Counted from the stretch's first letter, positions 4,921 to 48,273 are shown. The stretch: 64,000 nucleotides of DNA from Deltaproteobacteria bacterium (GCA_022340745.1 JAJDNL010000133.1:5315-69314); one strand, 5' to 3'. Made by a program: numbers and translations. Notes: generated by a model not told the origin, from the sequence alone.

Positions 4921-5565
4921 ATGGATCGAATACCATTGGTTATAGCCACGAGGAATAAGGGCAAAACCGAGGAGATCAGGGCGCTGCTGATCGATTTTCC
5001 TGTGGACATCAAGGATCTAGCTGACTTTGGGCCAACGCCGACAACCGAGGAGGATGGCGAAACATTTGAAGACAATGCAGTAAAAAAGGCGCGCTTCACC
5101 GCCAAGATTCTGGGATTACCTGCTCTTGCCGATGACTCTGGTCTGATGGTAGAAATTCTGGGCGGTGCTCCAGGAGTTCGGTCTGCCCGCTACGCAGGAG
5201 AAAACGCCAGCGATAAGGCAAATAACACCAAACTGCTCCAAGAACTTGAGAGTGCTGAAAATCGCAATGCCGCTTTTGCTTGTGTTATCGCTATAGCAGT
5301 TCCTTGGGGTCCGGCTCTCGTATACGAAGGACGCTGCGAAGGGATTATTACGAAAGAAGGGGTTGGAAGCCAGGGGTTCGGTTACGACCCGGTTTTTTAT
5401 TATCCACCGTTGGAAAAAACCTTCGCGCAACTCAATACCGAGGAGAAGAATCGGGTGAGTCATCGGGGACAGGCTCTGGGTCATTTACACGATGAGTTCG
5501 ATAAGGTACTAATCTGGCTGCGGCAAAGGCTGTTGGAGTCCGGCTGGCAGTGGTTGAAGGAATGA
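4921..5565 (+). CDS. rdgB: RdgB/HAM1 non-canonical purine NTP pyrophosphatase (dITP/XTP pyrophosphatase)
   Basis: 214 aa. VIATRNKGKTEEIRALL.. Ham1 signature, ..FGYDPVF.. Confidence 0.85.
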   Translation: MDRIPLVIATRNKGKTEEIRALLIDFPVDIKDLADFGPTPTTEEDGETFEDNAVKKARFTAKILGLPALADDSGLMVEILGGAPGVRSARYAGENASDKANNTKLLQELESAENRNAAFACVIAIAVPWGPALVYEGRCEGIITKEGVGSQGFGYDPVFYYPPLEKTFAQLNTEEKNRVSHRGQALGHLHDEFDKVLIWLRQRLLESGWQWLKE

Positions 5566-5615
5566 AAAAAGCCGACTCCCCACAGTGGAGTCGGCTTTTC
5601 TAGCGTCAGCGTATT

Positions 5616-5927
5616 CTAACAGCTGCAAGAACCGCAAGCGTCTGGTTGGGAAAGCGTTGAGGTAATAGAAAAACCCGAACAGTGAGCGTCTTCCATGTAA
5701 TCTACCTTTATGGGCTTAGCCTGATTCATTAAAGTGGTATCAACAAGATAGGTAAGACCGTCAAGTTCGACAACCTGATCTTTCTCGTTTGGCTCATCCA
5801 GAGCCATTCCCAATGAGGGGCCCCCTCAACCAACTTGGGAGACAAAAATACGAATTGCAGATTCGATCTCACGCTCTTCCAGGTACTCCTTCAGTTTCTC
5901 TGTCGCTTTTTCAGTAACCTCGATCAT
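5616..5927 (-). CDS. HesB/IscA-like A-type carrier selenoprotein (Sec encoded by in-frame UGA at 5828..5826)
   Basis: ORF track lists only the TTG-started 65-aa C-terminal fragment (5616..5813). The same frame continues upstream through TGA (5826..5828 on plus) to ATG 5927..5925, preceded by SD agagggag. Product: MIEVTEKATEKLKEYLEEREIESAIRIFVSQVG-U-GGPSLGMALDEPNEKDQVVELDGLTYLVDTTLMNQAKPIKVDYMEDAHCSGFSITSTLSQPDACGSCSC (103 aa). It aligns with IscA: the ..SGCSG.. first conserved Cys is replaced by U, DEP motif retained, C-terminal Cys pair retained. Confidence 0.75.
5791..5828 (-). other. UGA-Sec codon plus putative bacterial SECIS hairpin
   Basis: mRNA 3' of UGA reads GAGGGGGCCCCUCAUUGGGAAU-GGCUC-UGGAU-GAGCC. 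There is a perfect 5-bp stem with 5-nt G/U-containing loop (plus 5805..5791), about 20 nt downstream of UGA. A second GC palindrome lies directly after the UGA. Confidence 0.55.
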
Positions 5928-6233
5928 GCTGACTCCCTCTCTTTATTGATTTATCTGGTAATATATTCACTGCACAATTTTATGCCAGACTTTCTATTTT
6001 AAGGATCCTCTTCGTGGGTGTCAAGACCTCAGTGTAAGGTCTGGTACCCTTCCCAACCAAACACTCAAGAATCACAGTTACCCAATTTCTCTGGCTGTGG
6101 TTTGAGGCTGGGGAGATTGGCCAGATAAACCCCAAGCAGCAAAAGACGAGTCACCACGTAAAAGATGTTTCGCTCTCGGGATTAAGCATTTTCCAAGTGG
6201 AAACACAAAGTAAACCATGTTAAGAAAAGGGCC

Positions 6234-18304: not shown

Positions 18305-18877
18305 TTACTCGATAAGACTAATCAGTTGTTCAACCGATACACCTAAATTAGGACTGTTGTGCAAGGAGTTGCCAGGTCGCAAGACCTGTTCAGGAATGAA
18401 ACCAGGCAAATGAAAGTTGCACGACACAACCACAGTCCCGGGCTTGAGATTGGCTTCGAGCTTCGCTGCCAAATCCCTCATTACATCCGGAAAGAGATAG
18501 CGGAAAACAACGTCGGCCGCCGACAGATCTTCTGTCCAAAAGTTGCGCCATATTACCTCTACGTTTTGCGGACCAAGGCGCAGGAGTTTGGCCTTCAAAT
18601 AGGCCAGGAGATTCAGGTCGTATCCAAGCTCTCTCGCACCATATCTTTTCCGCACCTTGCGAAGAACTCACCAGTCTCCGCAACCAATGTCGACGAGGAG
18701 TTGGCCTGATTGTGTGGGTACCGCGTCCATAAAGGCGGTAATTCTTACCCGGGAGGTTGAGACGTACAGTGCTCCTCGAGTAATAGGAAGAAGCAGGGCA
18801 GTGCAAAAGACGTACGCAAGTTTGAGCACGATGAAAACTGCAGCGACAGTTAAGCATATCAGAAGCCACGTGTACAT
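18305..18877 (-). pseudogene. class I SAM-dependent methyltransferase with in-frame TGA after motif I (nonsense pseudogene, split gene or recoding)
   Basis: ORFs 18668..18877 (..LVDIGCGDW*) and 18305..18655 (GTG-started VLRKVRKRYGAREL..) are the same frame separated only by TGA at 18668..18670. The combined 190-aa product is a normal Rossmann MTase. Confidence 0.5.
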
Positions 18878-29799: not shown

Positions 29800-30056
29800 G
29801 TCTTGATCAATACACTATTTTGTCAGGCCAATCCAAGGGTTTTCATATTTAAAAGCAAGAAGACAGGAGACAGGAGACAGGAGTCAGGAGTCAGAATGAA
29901 AAATCAAATAGCGAATACCTCTTTTCTACTGACTACTGGCTATTTAGTTTCTTCGTTTTGCCTCCAACCTAAAGCGCAGCGCTCCTCCAACCTCCAACCC
30001 TATGCTCTATGCTTCTTGCCGTGTGCCTTCAAAGCTGACAGCTTCGAAATTTGCCC

Positions 30057-30085
30057 TTGACAAAAACATTCGTCCCAGCTACTAT
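30057..30085 (+). promoter_or_regulatory. sigma-70 promoter for fur
   Basis: TTGACA (30057-62), 17-nt spacer, TACTAT (30080-85), 27 nt before ATG 30113. Confidence 0.5.
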
Positions 30086-30112
30086 CGCAAATCGTTCTCA
30101 ATAAGGATCAAC

Positions 30113-30547
30113 ATGAAAAGTGAAATTGAGGTATTCAGAGAATTCATTCGCAATAAGGGTTTAAGAAAAACACCCGAGCGTGAACAGGTTGTCAGAGCGG
30201 TATTTGCCATCCACGACCATTTTGACGTGGATGAACTTTACGTGCTACTCCGGCGCGAGAACGAGAAAATCTCCAAAGCTACGATTTACCGTACTATTCC
30301 CCTGCTGCTTGAGAGCGGCCTCATCCAGGAAGCCTACTTCGAGGATGGGCATCTGCATTACGAACATATCTATGGGCATGAGCACCACTGCCACCTTCGT
30401 TGTCTAGAATGTGGTCAAATTATTGAATTTACAGAAGAAATTGTCAGAGATGTAGAGGAAAAGGTCGGTGAGCGTTATGATTTTCTTGTAACTGGACACA
30501 AACTCGAAGTGTATGGGCATTGTGTCAAATGTAAGGTGCACAGGTGA
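30113..30547 (+). CDS. fur: Fur-family transcriptional regulator
   Basis: 144 aa. ..KGLRKTPEREQVVRAVF..HHCHLRCLECGQIIEF..HKLEVYGHCVKC.. Confidence 0.8.
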   Translation: MKSEIEVFREFIRNKGLRKTPEREQVVRAVFAIHDHFDVDELYVLLRRENEKISKATIYRTIPLLLESGLIQEAYFEDGHLHYEHIYGHEHHCHLRCLECGQIIEFTEEIVRDVEEKVGERYDFLVTGHKLEVYGHCVKCKVHR

Positions 30548-30621
30548 GTAACAGCGCAAATGGCAAAAGTGTGCGACAGATTCGCGACGAAATGGTGCTT
30601 AGATAAGGGAGTCGAGGCTCG

Positions 30622-31320
30622 ATGGAACGGTTACACCAATACGAGAAAGATGAATTCATCCACATCTGCAAAGAGCATGGCCTGAACTATAGCGATAAGA
30701 GGTTGCTGGTGCTCGAGGCATTCTTGGGGACAACAGAGCACCTCACTGTTGCCGCTATCAAGGAGGAGCTCGAAAGCCAAGGCCAGCAATTGGCCAGCGA
30801 CTTTATTGGCGAGACCTTGGATCTTCTCTGCCGCTATGGCTATGCTTACAAGACGGAATTTGAGGGCCAGGAGGTCCAGTATGAACATCGCCACATAGGT
30901 TGGCATCATGACCATCTCATATGCGCCGACTGCGGCAAAATTCAGGAGTTCCACAACAGAGAGATTGAAGCATTGCAGCGACAAATCGCCCAGGATAGAT
31001 ATTTTACCTTGCTGCATCATAAAATGGAGCTCTACGGCATTTGTGGAGAGTGCCGGAAACAGCGGCGACCTGGTATTCCTTTATCTTATGTACTTCCTGG
31101 AGAGGAAGTTGTTATCGAGCGATTGCTCGGTGGGAAACAGGTTCAACAGCGATTGGCTGACATGGGACTTATCCCCGGAACAACTGTAGAAGTTATAAAA
31201 GCAAGCGGACCCGGCCCTATCATCGTTGCCTTCCGAGGCAGCAGAATCGCCCTGGGGCGCGGCCTCAGCCAGAAAGTGCTCGTCTCTACCAATAACAACC
31301 CTGCCAAAGACACTGGCTGA
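30622..31320 (+). CDS. Fur-family regulator fused to C-terminal FeoA domain
   Basis: 232 aa in one uninterrupted ORF. Fur core (..HDHLICADCGKIQEF..HKMELYGICGEC..) followed by LSYVLPGEEVVIERLLGGKQVQQRLADMGLIPGTTVEVIKASGPGPIIVAFRGSRIALGRGLSQKVLV, a FeoA SH3-like domain. Confidence 0.7.
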   Translation: MERLHQYEKDEFIHICKEHGLNYSDKRLLVLEAFLGTTEHLTVAAIKEELESQGQQLASDFIGETLDLLCRYGYAYKTEFEGQEVQYEHRHIGWHHDHLICADCGKIQEFHNREIEALQRQIAQDRYFTLLHHKMELYGICGECRKQRRPGIPLSYVLPGEEVVIERLLGGKQVQQRLADMGLIPGTTVEVIKASGPGPIIVAFRGSRIALGRGLSQKVLVSTNNNPAKDTG

Positions 31321-31416
31321 GGAGTTCCTCTCATATTGGTTCCCGGTTACAATCCTTATCATCTCTGCAGACGAGGGTGAATTTGGTGGGACACTTTATA
31401 GGTCGAATTTGGAGCT

Positions 31417-31665
31417 ATGGTGATGATTCCATTGAGTGAGTTCAAAGAAGGTGAGCGAGGTGTGATCAGACAATTGAACGGCAGTGGCACCTTTCGCAAG
31501 AGACTGCAGGAGATGGGCTTTATCAGGGGATCTGAGGTATTCGTTGAAAAATATGCTCCTCTGCGAGATCCAATTGAACTGGTGATCAAAGGCTACCACG
31601 TGTCGCTACGGATGGATGAGGCGTCCCAGATAATGATGGAAAAGCTGGAGCAAGAACAAAAGTGA
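31417..31665 (+). CDS. feoA: FeoA-family protein
   Basis: 82 aa. ..LSEFKEGERGVIRQLNGSGTFRKRLQEMGFIRGSEVFV.. Confidence 0.8.
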   Translation: MVMIPLSEFKEGERGVIRQLNGSGTFRKRLQEMGFIRGSEVFVEKYAPLRDPIELVIKGYHVSLRMDEASQIMMEKLEQEQK

Positions 31666-33845
31666 AGAAAGAAACCATTACTGTTGCCCTGACCGGCAAC
31701 CCGAACTCTGGCAAGACCACCATTTTCAATAATCTTACAGGTACTCGCCAGCATGTGGGAAACTGGCCGGGGGTGACGGTAGAGAAGAAGATGGGAACCG
31801 TGCTCCATAACGACCACCGGTTGCAGGTGGTTGACCTGCCGGGGACTTACAGTCTTACCGCATATTCCATCGAAGAAATCGTGGCCCGCAGTTTTCTGGT
31901 TGACTCGAAGCCGGATGTGGTTGTGGATATTGTGGATGCCTCCAATCTGGAGAGAAATCTCTACCTCGCCACCCAGCTTATAGAGATGGGGGTAAAGCTT
32001 ATTCTGGCCCTTAACATGGCTGATGTGGCCCAGTCACGCGGCCACCAGATTGACGCTGAGAGTCTGGGTACTCTCCTGGGTGTGCCTGTGGTTTTCACTA
32101 TCGGTACCAAGAATCAGGGGATGAAGGAACTACTGGACAAAGTGCTGGAAGTGGTGGAGGACAGGGATACGGTGAGCCGGCACATCCACATTTCTTACGG
32201 CCACGAGATGGAGAAAGAGATCAAGAAGATCCAGGACGTTATCTGGAAGGATCCCTCAGTTGGCGAGCGCTTTTCAACCCGCTGGTTGGCCGTGAAATTG
32301 TTGGAAAATGATGCAGCCGTGCAAGAGAGGGTACGATCGTTCGGGGAGATCGGCGAAGAAATTTTGGCTCAAGCTGAGGCGAGTCGCGAGCGGTTGGTTG
32401 AGTTTTATAAGGACGACGCTGAAATGGTACTCACAGACCAGCGTTATGGCTTTATTGGGGGGGCTCTCAAGGAGGTCCTTAAAGTCTCCACCAAAAGCAA
32501 ACTTGATCTCTCCAGGCAGGTAGATCTGTTTCTTACCAATAGGATTCTGGGTTTTCCCGTCTTCATTTTCTTCATCTGGGCCATGTTTCAGCTGACCTTT
32601 ACCGTGGGGGCCTATCCAATGGAATGGATAGACGCCGGGGTGACCTGGCTCGGGGCCGTTGTGACTGCGCTGCTGCCGGCGGGACTCCTACAGGACCTAC
32701 TGGTCAACGGCATCATAGCCGGAGTGGGTAGTGTAATTATTTTCTTGCCCAACATTTTGATTCTTTTTTTCTGTATTGCCGTGTTTGAGGATACAGGCTA
32801 CTTGGCGAGAGCCGCCTTTATCATGGACAGGGTAATGCATGTCATTGGTCTGCACGGCAAGTCGTTTATTCCCCTGCTCATGGGTTTTGGTTGCAACGCT
32901 CCGGCGATCATGGCTACTCGCACCCTCGAAAGCGAGCGTGATCGGTTGCTGAGCATCCTGATCAACCCTCTGATCAGTTGCTCAGCCCGATTACCCGTGT
33001 ATATACTGCTGGCCGGCACATTTTTCGGAGCCAGTGCTGGCAACGTCATCTTCAGTATCTATGGGCTCGGCATTGCTCTGGCCATAGCCATGGGCAAGCT
33101 CTTCAGTGTGACTCTTTTTCGGGGTGACATCGCTCCCTTTGTAATGGAACTTCCCCCCTATCGGGCGCCAACATTGAAGAGTTTGCTGATTCACATGTGG
33201 GATCGCAGTCAGATTTTCTTGCGTAAAATGAGTGGAGTGATCCTGGTAGGTTCCATCCTGGTCTGGGTCCTCAGCAGTTTCCCACGAAGCCCCGATCTGC
33301 TCCGGGGCCAGGCTGTGGAGACAGGGGCCACGAGTGCCACCCAGGAACGGGTGCTCACCGCTGCTGAATCCCAACGATCAGCGTCGGCCTCGATGGTGGA
33401 CGAGAATCTGAAGAGTTCGGTAGCAAACATTGAAATGGCAAGGCTGGAAAATAGCTTTCTCGGGAGGTTGGGCCATTTCATTCAACCAATCTTTGCTCCC
33501 TTGGGTTTTGACTGGCGAACGAGTGTTGCCGTGCTCACAGGATTTGTGGCAAAAGAGATTGTGGTGAGCACGCTTGGAGTATTGTATGCAGCCGGAGCCG
33601 ATGTGAACGAGGAGAGTGAAGCCTTGCGCCGGTCCTTGCGGGCCTCAGGCATGACTGCTCTCGGGGCATACACCCTCATGGCTTTTGTGCTTATTTACAT
33701 TCCGTGTTTGGCTACGGTGGCGGTGATTCGGCGCGAGACCAATTCCTGGAAGTGGACCGGGTTTAGTATTGGCTATTCTCTGGTCCTGGCATGGATGGTC
33801 TCCTTCCTAATCTATCAAGGCGGGAAGATTGCTGGGCTGGGATAG
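31662..33845 (+). CDS. feoB: ferrous iron transporter FeoB
   Basis: 727 aa. GTG start overlapping feoA TGA (GTGA). G-domain ALTGNPNSGKTTIFNNLTG, gate motifs and multi-TM region. Confidence 0.9.
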   Translation: MKKETITVALTGNPNSGKTTIFNNLTGTRQHVGNWPGVTVEKKMGTVLHNDHRLQVVDLPGTYSLTAYSIEEIVARSFLVDSKPDVVVDIVDASNLERNLYLATQLIEMGVKLILALNMADVAQSRGHQIDAESLGTLLGVPVVFTIGTKNQGMKELLDKVLEVVEDRDTVSRHIHISYGHEMEKEIKKIQDVIWKDPSVGERFSTRWLAVKLLENDAAVQERVRSFGEIGEEILAQAEASRERLVEFYKDDAEMVLTDQRYGFIGGALKEVLKVSTKSKLDLSRQVDLFLTNRILGFPVFIFFIWAMFQLTFTVGAYPMEWIDAGVTWLGAVVTALLPAGLLQDLLVNGIIAGVGSVIIFLPNILILFFCIAVFEDTGYLARAAFIMDRVMHVIGLHGKSFIPLLMGFGCNAPAIMATRTLESERDRLLSILINPLISCSARLPVYILLAGTFFGASAGNVIFSIYGLGIALAIAMGKLFSVTLFRGDIAPFVMELPPYRAPTLKSLLIHMWDRSQIFLRKMSGVILVGSILVWVLSSFPRSPDLLRGQAVETGATSATQERVLTAAESQRSASASMVDENLKSSVANIEMARLENSFLGRLGHFIQPIFAPLGFDWRTSVAVLTGFVAKEIVVSTLGVLYAAGADVNEESEALRRSLRASGMTALGAYTLMAFVLIYIPCLATVAVIRRETNSWKWTGFSIGYSLVLAWMVSFLIYQGGKIAGLG

Positions 33846-46341: not shown

Positions 46342-46636
46342 AAAGGGGGTGCCAATTCCTTGTCGTAAGCAAGAGAAAAGGCCACTATAATTATCGAAAG
46401 AAGAGCTCCTTCATCCACCTTCCGTTCGATTGCAAGCTACTCCTAATTCCAGATTCATCTGATTATAAGCCAAGATAGTAACTCCGAGGCATAGAGAAAG
46501 GTAGGGGTGAGAGGTCATTAGCATAGAAATTTCCTATTTGACTAATAGGGATCTTCGAGTAATAGTTGTTCCCATCCCGGCTGCCTGTTCGTGGAAGACC
46601 GAGAGTGAATACATTACAAACAGTGTGGAGGTATAT

Positions 46637-47206
46637 ATGAAGAAGAAATTACTACCACTGCTCATTTTGGCTTGGATTATCTTATTTTCTGCAGCTCTGG
46701 CAACAGCCGCCTCTAATGTGCCGAAGAAAAAACAAACGGTGTTAGGACTTTACCTGACTGCGAAGGATGCCTTTTCAAAATGGCATGTTGATGCCGACAA
46801 GGTTGTTGTCTTGGATGTAAGGACGCCGGAAGAATACATCTTTGTTGGCCATGCACCGATGGCCAGAAACATCCCCCTCAGTGTCTTGAACCAGGAATTG
46901 ACGGCTGAGAAAAGAAGACCTGTTATGGAGTTGAATCCTGGTTTTGTTTCTCAAGTCAAAAAGGACTACAAAATTACCGATACGATTCTGGTTATGTGCC
47001 GTTCGGGGGGCCGCAGCGCCAAGGCGGTCAACCTTCTAGCCGAGGCTGGATTCAAAAATGTCTACAATATCACAGACGGATTTGAAGGGGACTCAGTCAA
47101 GGACCCGCAGAGCTACTTCAACGGGAAAAGAGTGAAGAACGGGTGGAAGAATTCGGGAGCCCCCTGGACCTATGAGCTGGACCCCAACCTGATGTATCAG
47201 CCCTAA
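46637..47206 (+). CDS. secreted rhodanese-domain sulfurtransferase
   Basis: Signal peptide. Active-site CRSGGRS. SD GGAGG before ATG 46637. Confidence 0.75.
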   Translation: MKKKLLPLLILAWIILFSAALATAASNVPKKKQTVLGLYLTAKDAFSKWHVDADKVVVLDVRTPEEYIFVGHAPMARNIPLSVLNQELTAEKRRPVMELNPGFVSQVKKDYKITDTILVMCRSGGRSAKAVNLLAEAGFKNVYNITDGFEGDSVKDPQSYFNGKRVKNGWKNSGAPWTYELDPNLMYQP

Positions 47207-47571: not shown

Positions 47572-48273
47572 ATGCGCTACTTTCTAGCTGCCGCAATGCT
47601 AACGTGCACGTTTCTCCTGTTTTTTATCACCCCTAATGTCTTCGGGAGCTCACCTGCAATCCGTTTCCAGGAGAGTGTGTTCACCTTCCCGCCGGTTTTG
47701 GAGGGTGAATCAGTTGAGATCGCTTTTGAATTTTGTAATGCAGGTGGCGAGCCTCTGGTGATCCATGATGCCGTGACCTCGTGTGGTTGCACCACGGCAG
47801 ACTACCCAAGCTATCCTGTAAAAGCGGGAGAAAGTGGCAAGATCAGAACCATATTCAGGTCTGCAGGACATGGCGGTGAGAATGATATTGTGCTGCTCGT
47901 CAAGAGTAACGACCCCATTGCTTCGATAACGAAGTTGCGCATCCGGGGAACAGTGATACGCCAATGGCAAGCGCAGCCGGATCGATTCATTTTGACCAAC
48001 CTGAAGCCGAATCGTAGGTACACTCGGCGGCTGCAAATAGATAATTTCATGAAGGAATCACTACACATAAGACAACTAGTAGCTGGGAACCCTCACCTTC
48101 GCTTTCTCTCCAAGTCAAGGGAAGTAGCACCAGGAGGGGGGAAAATTATTGCCTTTGAAGTGAACACCAGGAATCTCGAGCCGGGGAGAATCGTTCAGTC
48201 TTCTATCCGGCTCGAAGTTGTTAATGCTGAGATGCAAGCGGTTGAGATCCCCGTACTCATAAGACTCAAATGA
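47572..48273 (+). CDS. secreted DUF1573-domain protein (CGC-motif Ig-like domain) with extra C-terminal domain
   Basis: ..VIHDAVTSCGCTTADYP.. is the DUF1573 hallmark. Confidence 0.65.
   Translation: MRYFLAAAMLTCTFLLFFITPNVFGSSPAIRFQESVFTFPPVLEGESVEIAFEFCNAGGEPLVIHDAVTSCGCTTADYPSYPVKAGESGKIRTIFRSAGHGGENDIVLLVKSNDPIASITKLRIRGTVIRQWQAQPDRFILTNLKPNRRYTRRLQIDNFMKESLHIRQLVAGNPHLRFLSKSREVAPGGGKIIAFEVNTRNLEPGRIVQSSIRLEVVNAEMQAVEIPVLIRLK

Follow-up and report, generated by a model that had tools for sequence, protein, structure and literature searches.

The question raised by this locus is how the cell reads a TGA codon that stands inside an otherwise continuous reading frame. In the window (here, the whole 64,000-nucleotide stretch of DNA that was analysed), the mechanical ORF list shows just a TTG-started 65-aa piece at 5616..5813, and the GenBank entry of the source genome, a MAG in which the window belongs to a 69.5-kb contig, has a 65-aa hypothetical protein (LJE87_07605 / MCG6945198.1). 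Read directly from the window, the frame on the minus strand extends from an ATG at 5927..5925 to a TAG at 5618..5616 and comprises 103 sense codons with a single internal stop; this sole in-frame stop is the TGA at 5828..5826, codon 34. The translation runs MIEVTEKATEKLKEYLEEREIESAIRIFVSQVG up to the TGA and GGPSLGMALDEP...CGSCSC beyond it. An earlier note on this DNA had described an ORF track limited to the 65-aa TTG piece, with a frame running upstream through one TGA to an ATG with a Shine-Dalgarno sequence, and had predicted mis-annotation of the locus as a truncated fragment; all of this is borne out, the prediction by LJE87_07605. We consider it very probable that the locus encodes a 103-residue selenoprotein of the IscA/HesB family (A-type Fe-S carrier-like), with SECIS-directed insertion of selenocysteine (Sec) at the UGA.

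The complete coding sequence (5616..5927, minus strand; 103 residues and TAG, supported by HMM and PDB matches) is flanked by the signals expected of a gene in its own right. A Shine-Dalgarno-like GAGGGAG (5933..5939, minus strand, by direct sequence reading) lies 5 nt 5' of the ATG, and a promoter-like TTGACA-17 nt-TAAAAT (5996..6024, minus strand) is found ~70 nt upstream of the ATG; with 11 of 12 matches to the consensus, it is a candidate promoter for the gene. At the other end, an intrinsic terminator hairpin with a U-run (5565..5601, minus strand; dG -24.2 kcal/mol, z = -4.2, 0/200 shuffles as good) overlaps the 3' end of rdgB, a convergent gene (XTP/dITP diphosphatase; 4921..5565, plus strand, stop codon at 5563..5565) that adjoins the selenoprotein gene. 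Having an A-tract on one side and a U-tract on the other, and lying between the convergent hesB-like gene and rdgB, this terminator is probably bidirectional and serves both. It was missed by a simple pattern scan, apparently owing to pairing between the two tracts. Because the selenoprotein gene has its own promoter-like site and a strong terminator set directly against the end of rdgB, it appears to be monocistronic. Its further neighbours in the window are a divergent metallophosphoesterase gene and an FmdB zinc-ribbon gene.

Family searches, run with Sec written as Cys in the 103-aa product, match the entire frame, across the stop. The NCBIfam model NF038090 ("IscA_HesB_Se") is matched with 122.4 bits against a cut-off of 85 (E = 7.7e-36), residues 1-103 lying on model positions 1-101; its name denotes the IscA/HesB subfamily that contains selenium, and the model is a sister of TIGR01911. 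The generic A-type carrier model TIGR00049 (63.3 bits, cut-off 58.8) and Pfam PF01521 (34.0 bits, cut-off 26.3) are also matched above their cut-offs, and TIGR01911 ("HesB_rel_seleno") is matched below its own (49.8 bits, cut-off 66.35). Homology is not confined to the part downstream of the TGA: the 33 residues upstream of it, taken alone, match NF038090 at 3.2e-8. Among proteins of solved structure, Aq_1857 (1NWB) matches at 1.2e-11 over product residues 2-103, and HI1723 (2APN) and E. coli IscA (1S98/1R94) also align over the full length. In 1NWB, 2APN and 1S98 the GGCSG motif has its Cys in the column of residue 34, the UGA. The earlier note had proposed a complete A-type Fe-S carrier homologue with UGA at the first conserved Cys; the family HMM that spans the stop, the PF01521 alignment across it and the correspondence of Cys and Sec on the solved structures confirm that proposal. 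In the product, U34-G-G-P constitutes a UxGP motif with a single Sec.

A-type carriers have three conserved ligand cysteines, arranged as C-Xn-C-G-C (C35, C99 and C101 in E. coli IscA). The counterpart of the CGC ligands here, to go by homologue conservation and the 1NWB alignment, is a C-terminal cluster, C98-G-S-C101-S-C103 (5619..5636, minus strand): the CGSCSC tail aligns with the C-terminal SCGC of 1NWB, and among 39 homologues C101 is invariant, with C98 and C103 each kept in at least 90%. The column shared by the UGA and the Cys of GGCSG, together with the C-terminal Cys pair, corresponds to the cluster-ligand positions of A-type carriers. The resulting ligand set, Sec at the first position followed by CGSCSC, is chemically equivalent to C-Xn-C-G-C, not identical with it. 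With Sec34 at the first ligand position and C98, C101 and C103 at the others, the protein would therefore be expected to bind or transfer an Fe-S cluster (or iron), a selenolate being among its ligands.

The same alignments weigh on the notion that translation of the locus yields two small products, with a 33-aa peptide terminated at the UGA and a 63- or 65-aa protein initiated at an internal ATG or TTG. Such internal starts do exist (the ATG of M41 and the TTG at 5813), and gene callers choose them; no Shine-Dalgarno-like sequence has been noted before either, however, and the two halves jointly make up one A-type carrier domain, which HMMs and PDB proteins match across the junction. Homologues with Cys at the UGA position are, moreover, single polypeptides. 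That the locus yields two separate proteins is highly improbable.

The protein search returns three kinds of homologue: many "fragments" of 63-65 aa, full-length forms with Cys, and full-length forms with "W". When GTDB genomes, one for each species, were scanned for the degenerate peptide pattern GPSLG[ML][AV]LDE, 80 loci emerged, all but a few of which are labelled Desulfobacterota or Deltaproteobacteria (one is labelled Gaiellales). They include Syntrophobacterales, Desulfatiglandales, Syntrophorhabdus, Smithella and Desulfobacteraceae, as well as the cultured Desulfogranum mediterraneum DSM 13871. Of these 80 species loci, 76 have TGA at the codon two places ahead of GPSLG and the other 4 have TGT or TGC there; protein identity to the window product ranges over 42-96%. 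At the TGA loci, a conserved N-terminal extension of 32-33 codons begins at Met, and the frame is conserved on both sides of the TGA; the N-terminal Met occupies an equal position in the 80 related loci. Metagenomes supply 36 further Cys loci. In a motif check of the NF038090 type, the window reads G-U-G-GPSLGMALDE, and the same column holds TGA or Cys in 84 loci. Wherever the codon is not TGA, the homologous residue is Cys, never Trp. A stop codon retained in 76/80 species at such divergence has therefore been under selection across a phylum.

This conservation also disposes of one alternative, that the locus is an ordinary Cys-type IscA/HesB gene put out of action by a nonsense mutation. GenBank treats the locus as a 65-aa fragment, as it would a damaged gene, and the window does hold one gene that looks like a true TGA pseudogene (a methyltransferase gene at 18305..18877, described below). 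A nonsense mutation would not be phylum-wide, however, nor would it come with an RNA structure specific to TGA forms; the start, the Shine-Dalgarno-like site and the terminator are intact, and purifying selection is evident on both sides of the TGA. Because the TGA is conserved throughout the phylum with selection on either side, inactivation is effectively refuted.

The "W" at the Sec position in metagenome gene calls (P0001-P0003, P0011, P0013, P0022, P0036 and others; loci L001-L003) comes from the genetic code used. For three "W" forms the contig itself was inspected, and in each the W codon is TGA at the DNA level; the "W" entries are evidently translations of short contigs with code 4 (TGA=Trp). 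Dozens of other public metagenome entries of the HesB-like family are fragments of 63-65 aa.

Conservation of the codon is accompanied by conservation of RNA structure 3' of it. With the U of UGA numbered 0, 77 distinct TGA-form sequences align gap-free from -12 to +68, and RNAalifold, applied to 78 sequences, recovers exactly two helices. Helix 1, CCC-UCAUU-GGG in the window (+9..+19; 5809..5819, minus strand), pairs C9-C10-C11 with G17-G18-G19 around a 5-nt loop (CCC-N5-GGG). Helix 2, GGCUC-UGGAU-GAGCC (+23..+37; 5791..5805, minus strand), pairs G23-G24-C25-U26-C27 with G33-A34-G35-C36-C37 and closes a loop, UGGAY, whose GG is invariant in 77/77 Sec forms. In this alignment 99.7% of cells are standard-paired, a share that drops to 7-54% if the 3' partners are shifted 1-3 columns. 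The covariation score is reached by 0/500 shuffles and derives from two informative pairs, the other six being dictated by the residues encoded (Pro, Gly, Met-Ala-Leu-Asp-Glu-Pro). The first of the two, +11/+17, is the only pair of helix 1 free of codon constraint: it is C-G in 73/77, and the remainder comprise A-U, G-C and G-U double changes and one mismatch. The second, +25/+35, is C-G in 73, U-A in 3 and U-G in 1 of the 77 Sec forms. The three U-A variants (L035, L048 and L082) have 47-58% mutual identity and each has a C-G form as its nearest relative, which points to more than one independent event in the origin of the U-A changes.

Because the amino-acid sequence fixes most of the pairs, synonymous sites are more telling than the pairs themselves. 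All 77 Sec forms agree at synonymous sites +26, +27 and +29, and the neighbouring synonymous sites +5, +8, +14, +20 and +38 vary freely. Comparison with 31 distinct Cys forms (4 from genomes, the rest from a metagenome scan with the degenerate pattern) shows what these sites do when no UGA needs to be served. The Ala/Val codon is GCU in 73 and GUU in 4 of the 77 Sec forms, with no other codon used, against all four Ala codons in the Cys forms; the Leu codon is CUG in 77/77, against five Leu codons; the Glu codon is GAG in 74/77 Sec forms, against GAA in 19/31 Cys forms; and the Pro codon is CCC in 74/77 against 19/31. The three Sec forms with GAA are the compensated ones. Helix 2 is intact in 76/77 Sec forms and 5/31 Cys forms (Fisher 6e-19, relatedness ignored), and helix 1 in 76/77 and 17/31, respectively (Fisher 2e-8, relatedness likewise ignored). 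The contrast is large, and the two helices belong to the UGA form of the gene.

The five distinct Cys-form sequences in which helix 2 is still intact (L087/L106/L117, L088/L098, L110 and L111) form a small class of their own. The exact GGCUCUGGAYGAGCC is present in four of the five, and L088/L098 have a premature stop shortly after. Their retained hairpins suggest fossil SECIS elements left by recent conversion of Sec to Cys. The same conversion with a kept hairpin appears in the Desulfitobacterium HesB-like protein, according to the legend of Fig. 4 of Zhang et al. 2006 (PMC1794560).

What distinguishes the hairpin from chance is the comparative data, not the thermodynamics of one sequence. 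The fold energy of the single window sequence is no better than that of shuffles (z = -0.54, with 55/200 shuffles folding as well), and single-sequence folding 3' of the UGA, in which hairpins do appear, was dropped as stand-alone evidence. Rfam gives no match at the gathering threshold anywhere in the window and, at E<=10 on 5700..5950, one chance lncRNA match only. The minimum free energy fold of the window contains another hairpin, UGAGGG-GGC-CCCUCA (5814..5828, minus strand), which includes the UGA itself. The earlier note had counted this GAGGGGGCCCCUC palindrome, preceding the GGCUC-UGGAU-GAGCC hairpin, as part of the SECIS-like fold. The palindrome is confined to the window's close relatives, and because +3..+5 vary freely across the family (as does +14), it lies outside the conserved element and was rejected as a part of it; the conserved upstream element is CCC-N5-GGG. 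Thus, of the fold that the earlier note drew, the hairpin ~20 nt after the UGA stands, as conserved, covarying and specific to TGA forms, and the palindrome is a lineage-specific feature. The single-sequence fold bears out the presence of both in the minimum free energy structure, with an energy no better than that of shuffled sequence.

Recognition of bacterial SECIS elements relies on a hairpin that closely follows the UGA and has guanosine in a small apical loop (PMC1088965). The helix at +23..+37, with its UGGAY loop and invariant GG, its covariation and its specificity for UGA forms, has these features. This evidence bears directly on the proposal that the UGA is recoded as something other than Sec, with the hairpins promoting read-through by some other factor or by a near-cognate tRNA for Trp or Cys, to give W34 or C34. 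Such recoding would fit the observations that Sec machinery was not found in the 64-kb window and that several metagenome pipelines already give W at the codon. The latter, however, are code-4 calls on short contigs in which the DNA reads TGA, and the forms that lack TGA have Cys at this place and never Trp. Moreover, TGA terminates 12 of 35 genes in the window, the alternation of UGA with Cys and a G-containing apical loop are the standard signature of SelB-dependent decoding (PMC1088965), and the host phylum is rich in selenoproteins (PMC1794560). Non-Sec recoding is accordingly very unlikely.

The use of TGA as the normal stop of 12/35 window genes means that there is no reassignment of the genetic code in the window. 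What the window holds of the Sec-decoding apparatus is a separate matter. There is no tRNA of any kind in its 64 kb (60 related loci have tRNA-Ala only), and an NCBIfam scan of its 30 largest ORFs gave no match to SelA, SelB or SelD. Motif regexes for SelA, SelB and SelD found nothing in the window or in 1.1 Mb of related loci, which is weak negative evidence. Nor does the 64-kb window contain a second selenoprotein gene that would confirm the trait independently. We infer, as the earlier note did, that the source organism decodes UGA as Sec because of the locus itself and because of the selenoprotein richness of its phylum: Syntrophobacter fumaroxidans has 31 selenoproteins and Syntrophus aciditrophicus 19, each including one HesB-like protein (PMC1794560).

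A scan of the window for further genes with an in-frame TGA gave one plausible candidate, rejected as a selenoprotein gene: the methyltransferase gene at 18305..18877 (minus strand), which encodes a class I SAM-dependent enzyme and has an in-frame TGA at codon 70, within the SAM-binding motif. The window reads DIGCGDW*VLRK (asterisk, stop), against DIGCGDGRVLRK in homologues of 182-184 aa; at the W-stop position these have Arg (GDGRVLRK), and the C-terminus diverges too. Because the stop replaces Arg, not Cys, the gene looks like a pseudogene and not like a selenoprotein gene. Two further assemblies (ENA ERZ27251468 and Logan SRR9045291) carry the gene truncated in the same way, and GenBank annotates the locus as a 116-aa fragment (LJE87_07660).

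The decoding of the IscA/HesB-family gene as a selenoprotein can be put together as follows. Translation would begin at the ATG at 5927 and, on reaching the UGA at 5828..5826, the ribosome would put in Sec and not terminate. The mRNA 3' of the UGA is predicted to fold into a bacterial SECIS composed of helix 1 (+9..+19) and the main hairpin (+23..+37), with GG in the apical loop; the folded element would recruit SelB-GTP-Sec-tRNA(Sec). Sec34 would then replace the first of the three cluster-ligand cysteines, the others being supplied by C98, C101 and C103, and the predicted product would hold an Fe-S cluster (or iron), or pass it on, by way of a selenolate ligand. The sequence comparisons show the structure of the gene, its family, the conserved UGA and the helices specific to UGA forms; dependence on SelB, incorporation of selenium and the Fe-S function of the product are inferred.

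In E. coli fdhF the SECIS hairpin lies 11 nt after the UGA, and the main hairpin here lies 20 nt after it, a longer spacing that counts against the SECIS reading. Unlike fdhF, which has one long helix, the element here has two short ones. Like the fdhF paradigm and the bacterial consensus (PMC1088965), it is a hairpin within the coding sequence, close behind the UGA and with guanosine in its small apical loop, and it is essentially restricted to UGA forms, as bacterial SECIS elements are. The putative SECIS lies in the codons for M-A-L-D-E-P, the best-conserved peptide motif of the protein.

The predicted protein is, by its match, an ordinary member of the curated family NF038090: the match is full-length, above the curated cut-off and inclusive of the 33 residues before the UGA, and no difference is detected. 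A 2006 table of 25 bacterial selenoprotein families includes the HesB-like proteins (Zhang et al., PMC1794560), and a 2026 review lists HesB-like selenoproteins with the motif UxGP and the model TIGR01911 (PMC13188914). An archaeal HesB-like member, that of M. maripaludis, has been verified by 75Se labelling, and its function is stated to be unclear (PMC11097638). The window protein resembles the HesB-like family of the literature (TIGR01911) in being a small HesB/IscA-related protein with one Sec in U-x-G-P at the first conserved Cys, in having Cys homologues, some with a fossil SECIS-like hairpin, and in host groups in common (Syntrophobacter, Syntrophus, Geobacter, Desulfovibrio). It differs in falling below the TIGR01911 cut-off (49.8 vs 66.35) and in its C-x-x-C-x-C tail. 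With IscA, SufA and ErpA (TIGR00049, PF01521; 1NWB, 2APN, 1S98/1R94, 1X0G) it shares the full-length domain and conserved ligand positions. Unlike in these, the first ligand is Sec and not Cys, the local motif is G-U-x-G-P-S-L-G-M-A-L-D-E and not G-C-S-G, and the C-terminal motif is CGSCSC and not CGC; the gene lies outside any isc, suf or nif operon, apparently monocistronic between rdgB and the metallophosphoesterase gene.

HesB-like UxGP selenoproteins have been listed since 2005-2006, and the locus is an annotation correction, not a discovery. Its wider use lies elsewhere. The locus implies decoding of UGA as Sec in the organism, and Sec-aware re-annotation of the whole genome is warranted. 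The comparative description of the SECIS (two helices, the near-invariant 15-mer GGCUCUGGAYGAGCC, covariation) may be mildly useful, as a DNA signature with which Sec forms of the HesB-like family could be detected. A bolder interpretation, which we hold to be unlikely, takes the 76/80 species count to mean an A-type carrier clade that is almost obligately Sec-containing in the Desulfobacterota. Its Sec would serve as a selenolate ligand or relay in a role distinct from that of housekeeping IscA/ErpA, for example in very-low-redox cluster delivery or in Se/S trafficking, and the two-helix SECIS would be locked into the GPSLGMALDE codons, with RNA and protein constraints co-evolving. Only the Sec/Cys ratio and the frozen codons speak for this.

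Across 81 loci (L004-L083 and the window), rdgB adjoins the selenoprotein gene in 38 and yggS does so in 22; in 20 the neighbour is a ttcA-like gene, a tRNA thiolation gene of an Fe-S enzyme family. These adjacencies may reflect synteny alone or a functional link, and the neighbourhood offers no lead on function. Across the related loci no isc, suf, nif or sel genes stand next to the selenoprotein gene. In 19 loci a 144-aa Cys-rich unannotated ORF lies just downstream on the opposite strand.

Two other regions of the window touch on selenium or iron. A 233-aa protein encoded at 47572..48273 (plus strand) matches the model NF041425, "OS_HP2 family (seleno)protein", with 70.4 bits, below the cut-off of 100, and carries the Cys version of the motif (VTSCGCTT). 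It is thereby a homologue, with Cys in place of Sec, of a different selenoprotein family, and its gene adjoins that of a rhodanese-domain protein (46538..47206, plus strand). At 30002..33845 (plus strand), two tandem Fur-like genes lie directly upstream of feoB (31662..33845); the one at 30622..31320 matched Fur/PerR models, and the one at 30002..30547 was assigned by sequence only. Together the three genes make up a regulatory cluster for iron uptake, ~25 kb away from the gene of the Fe-S carrier.
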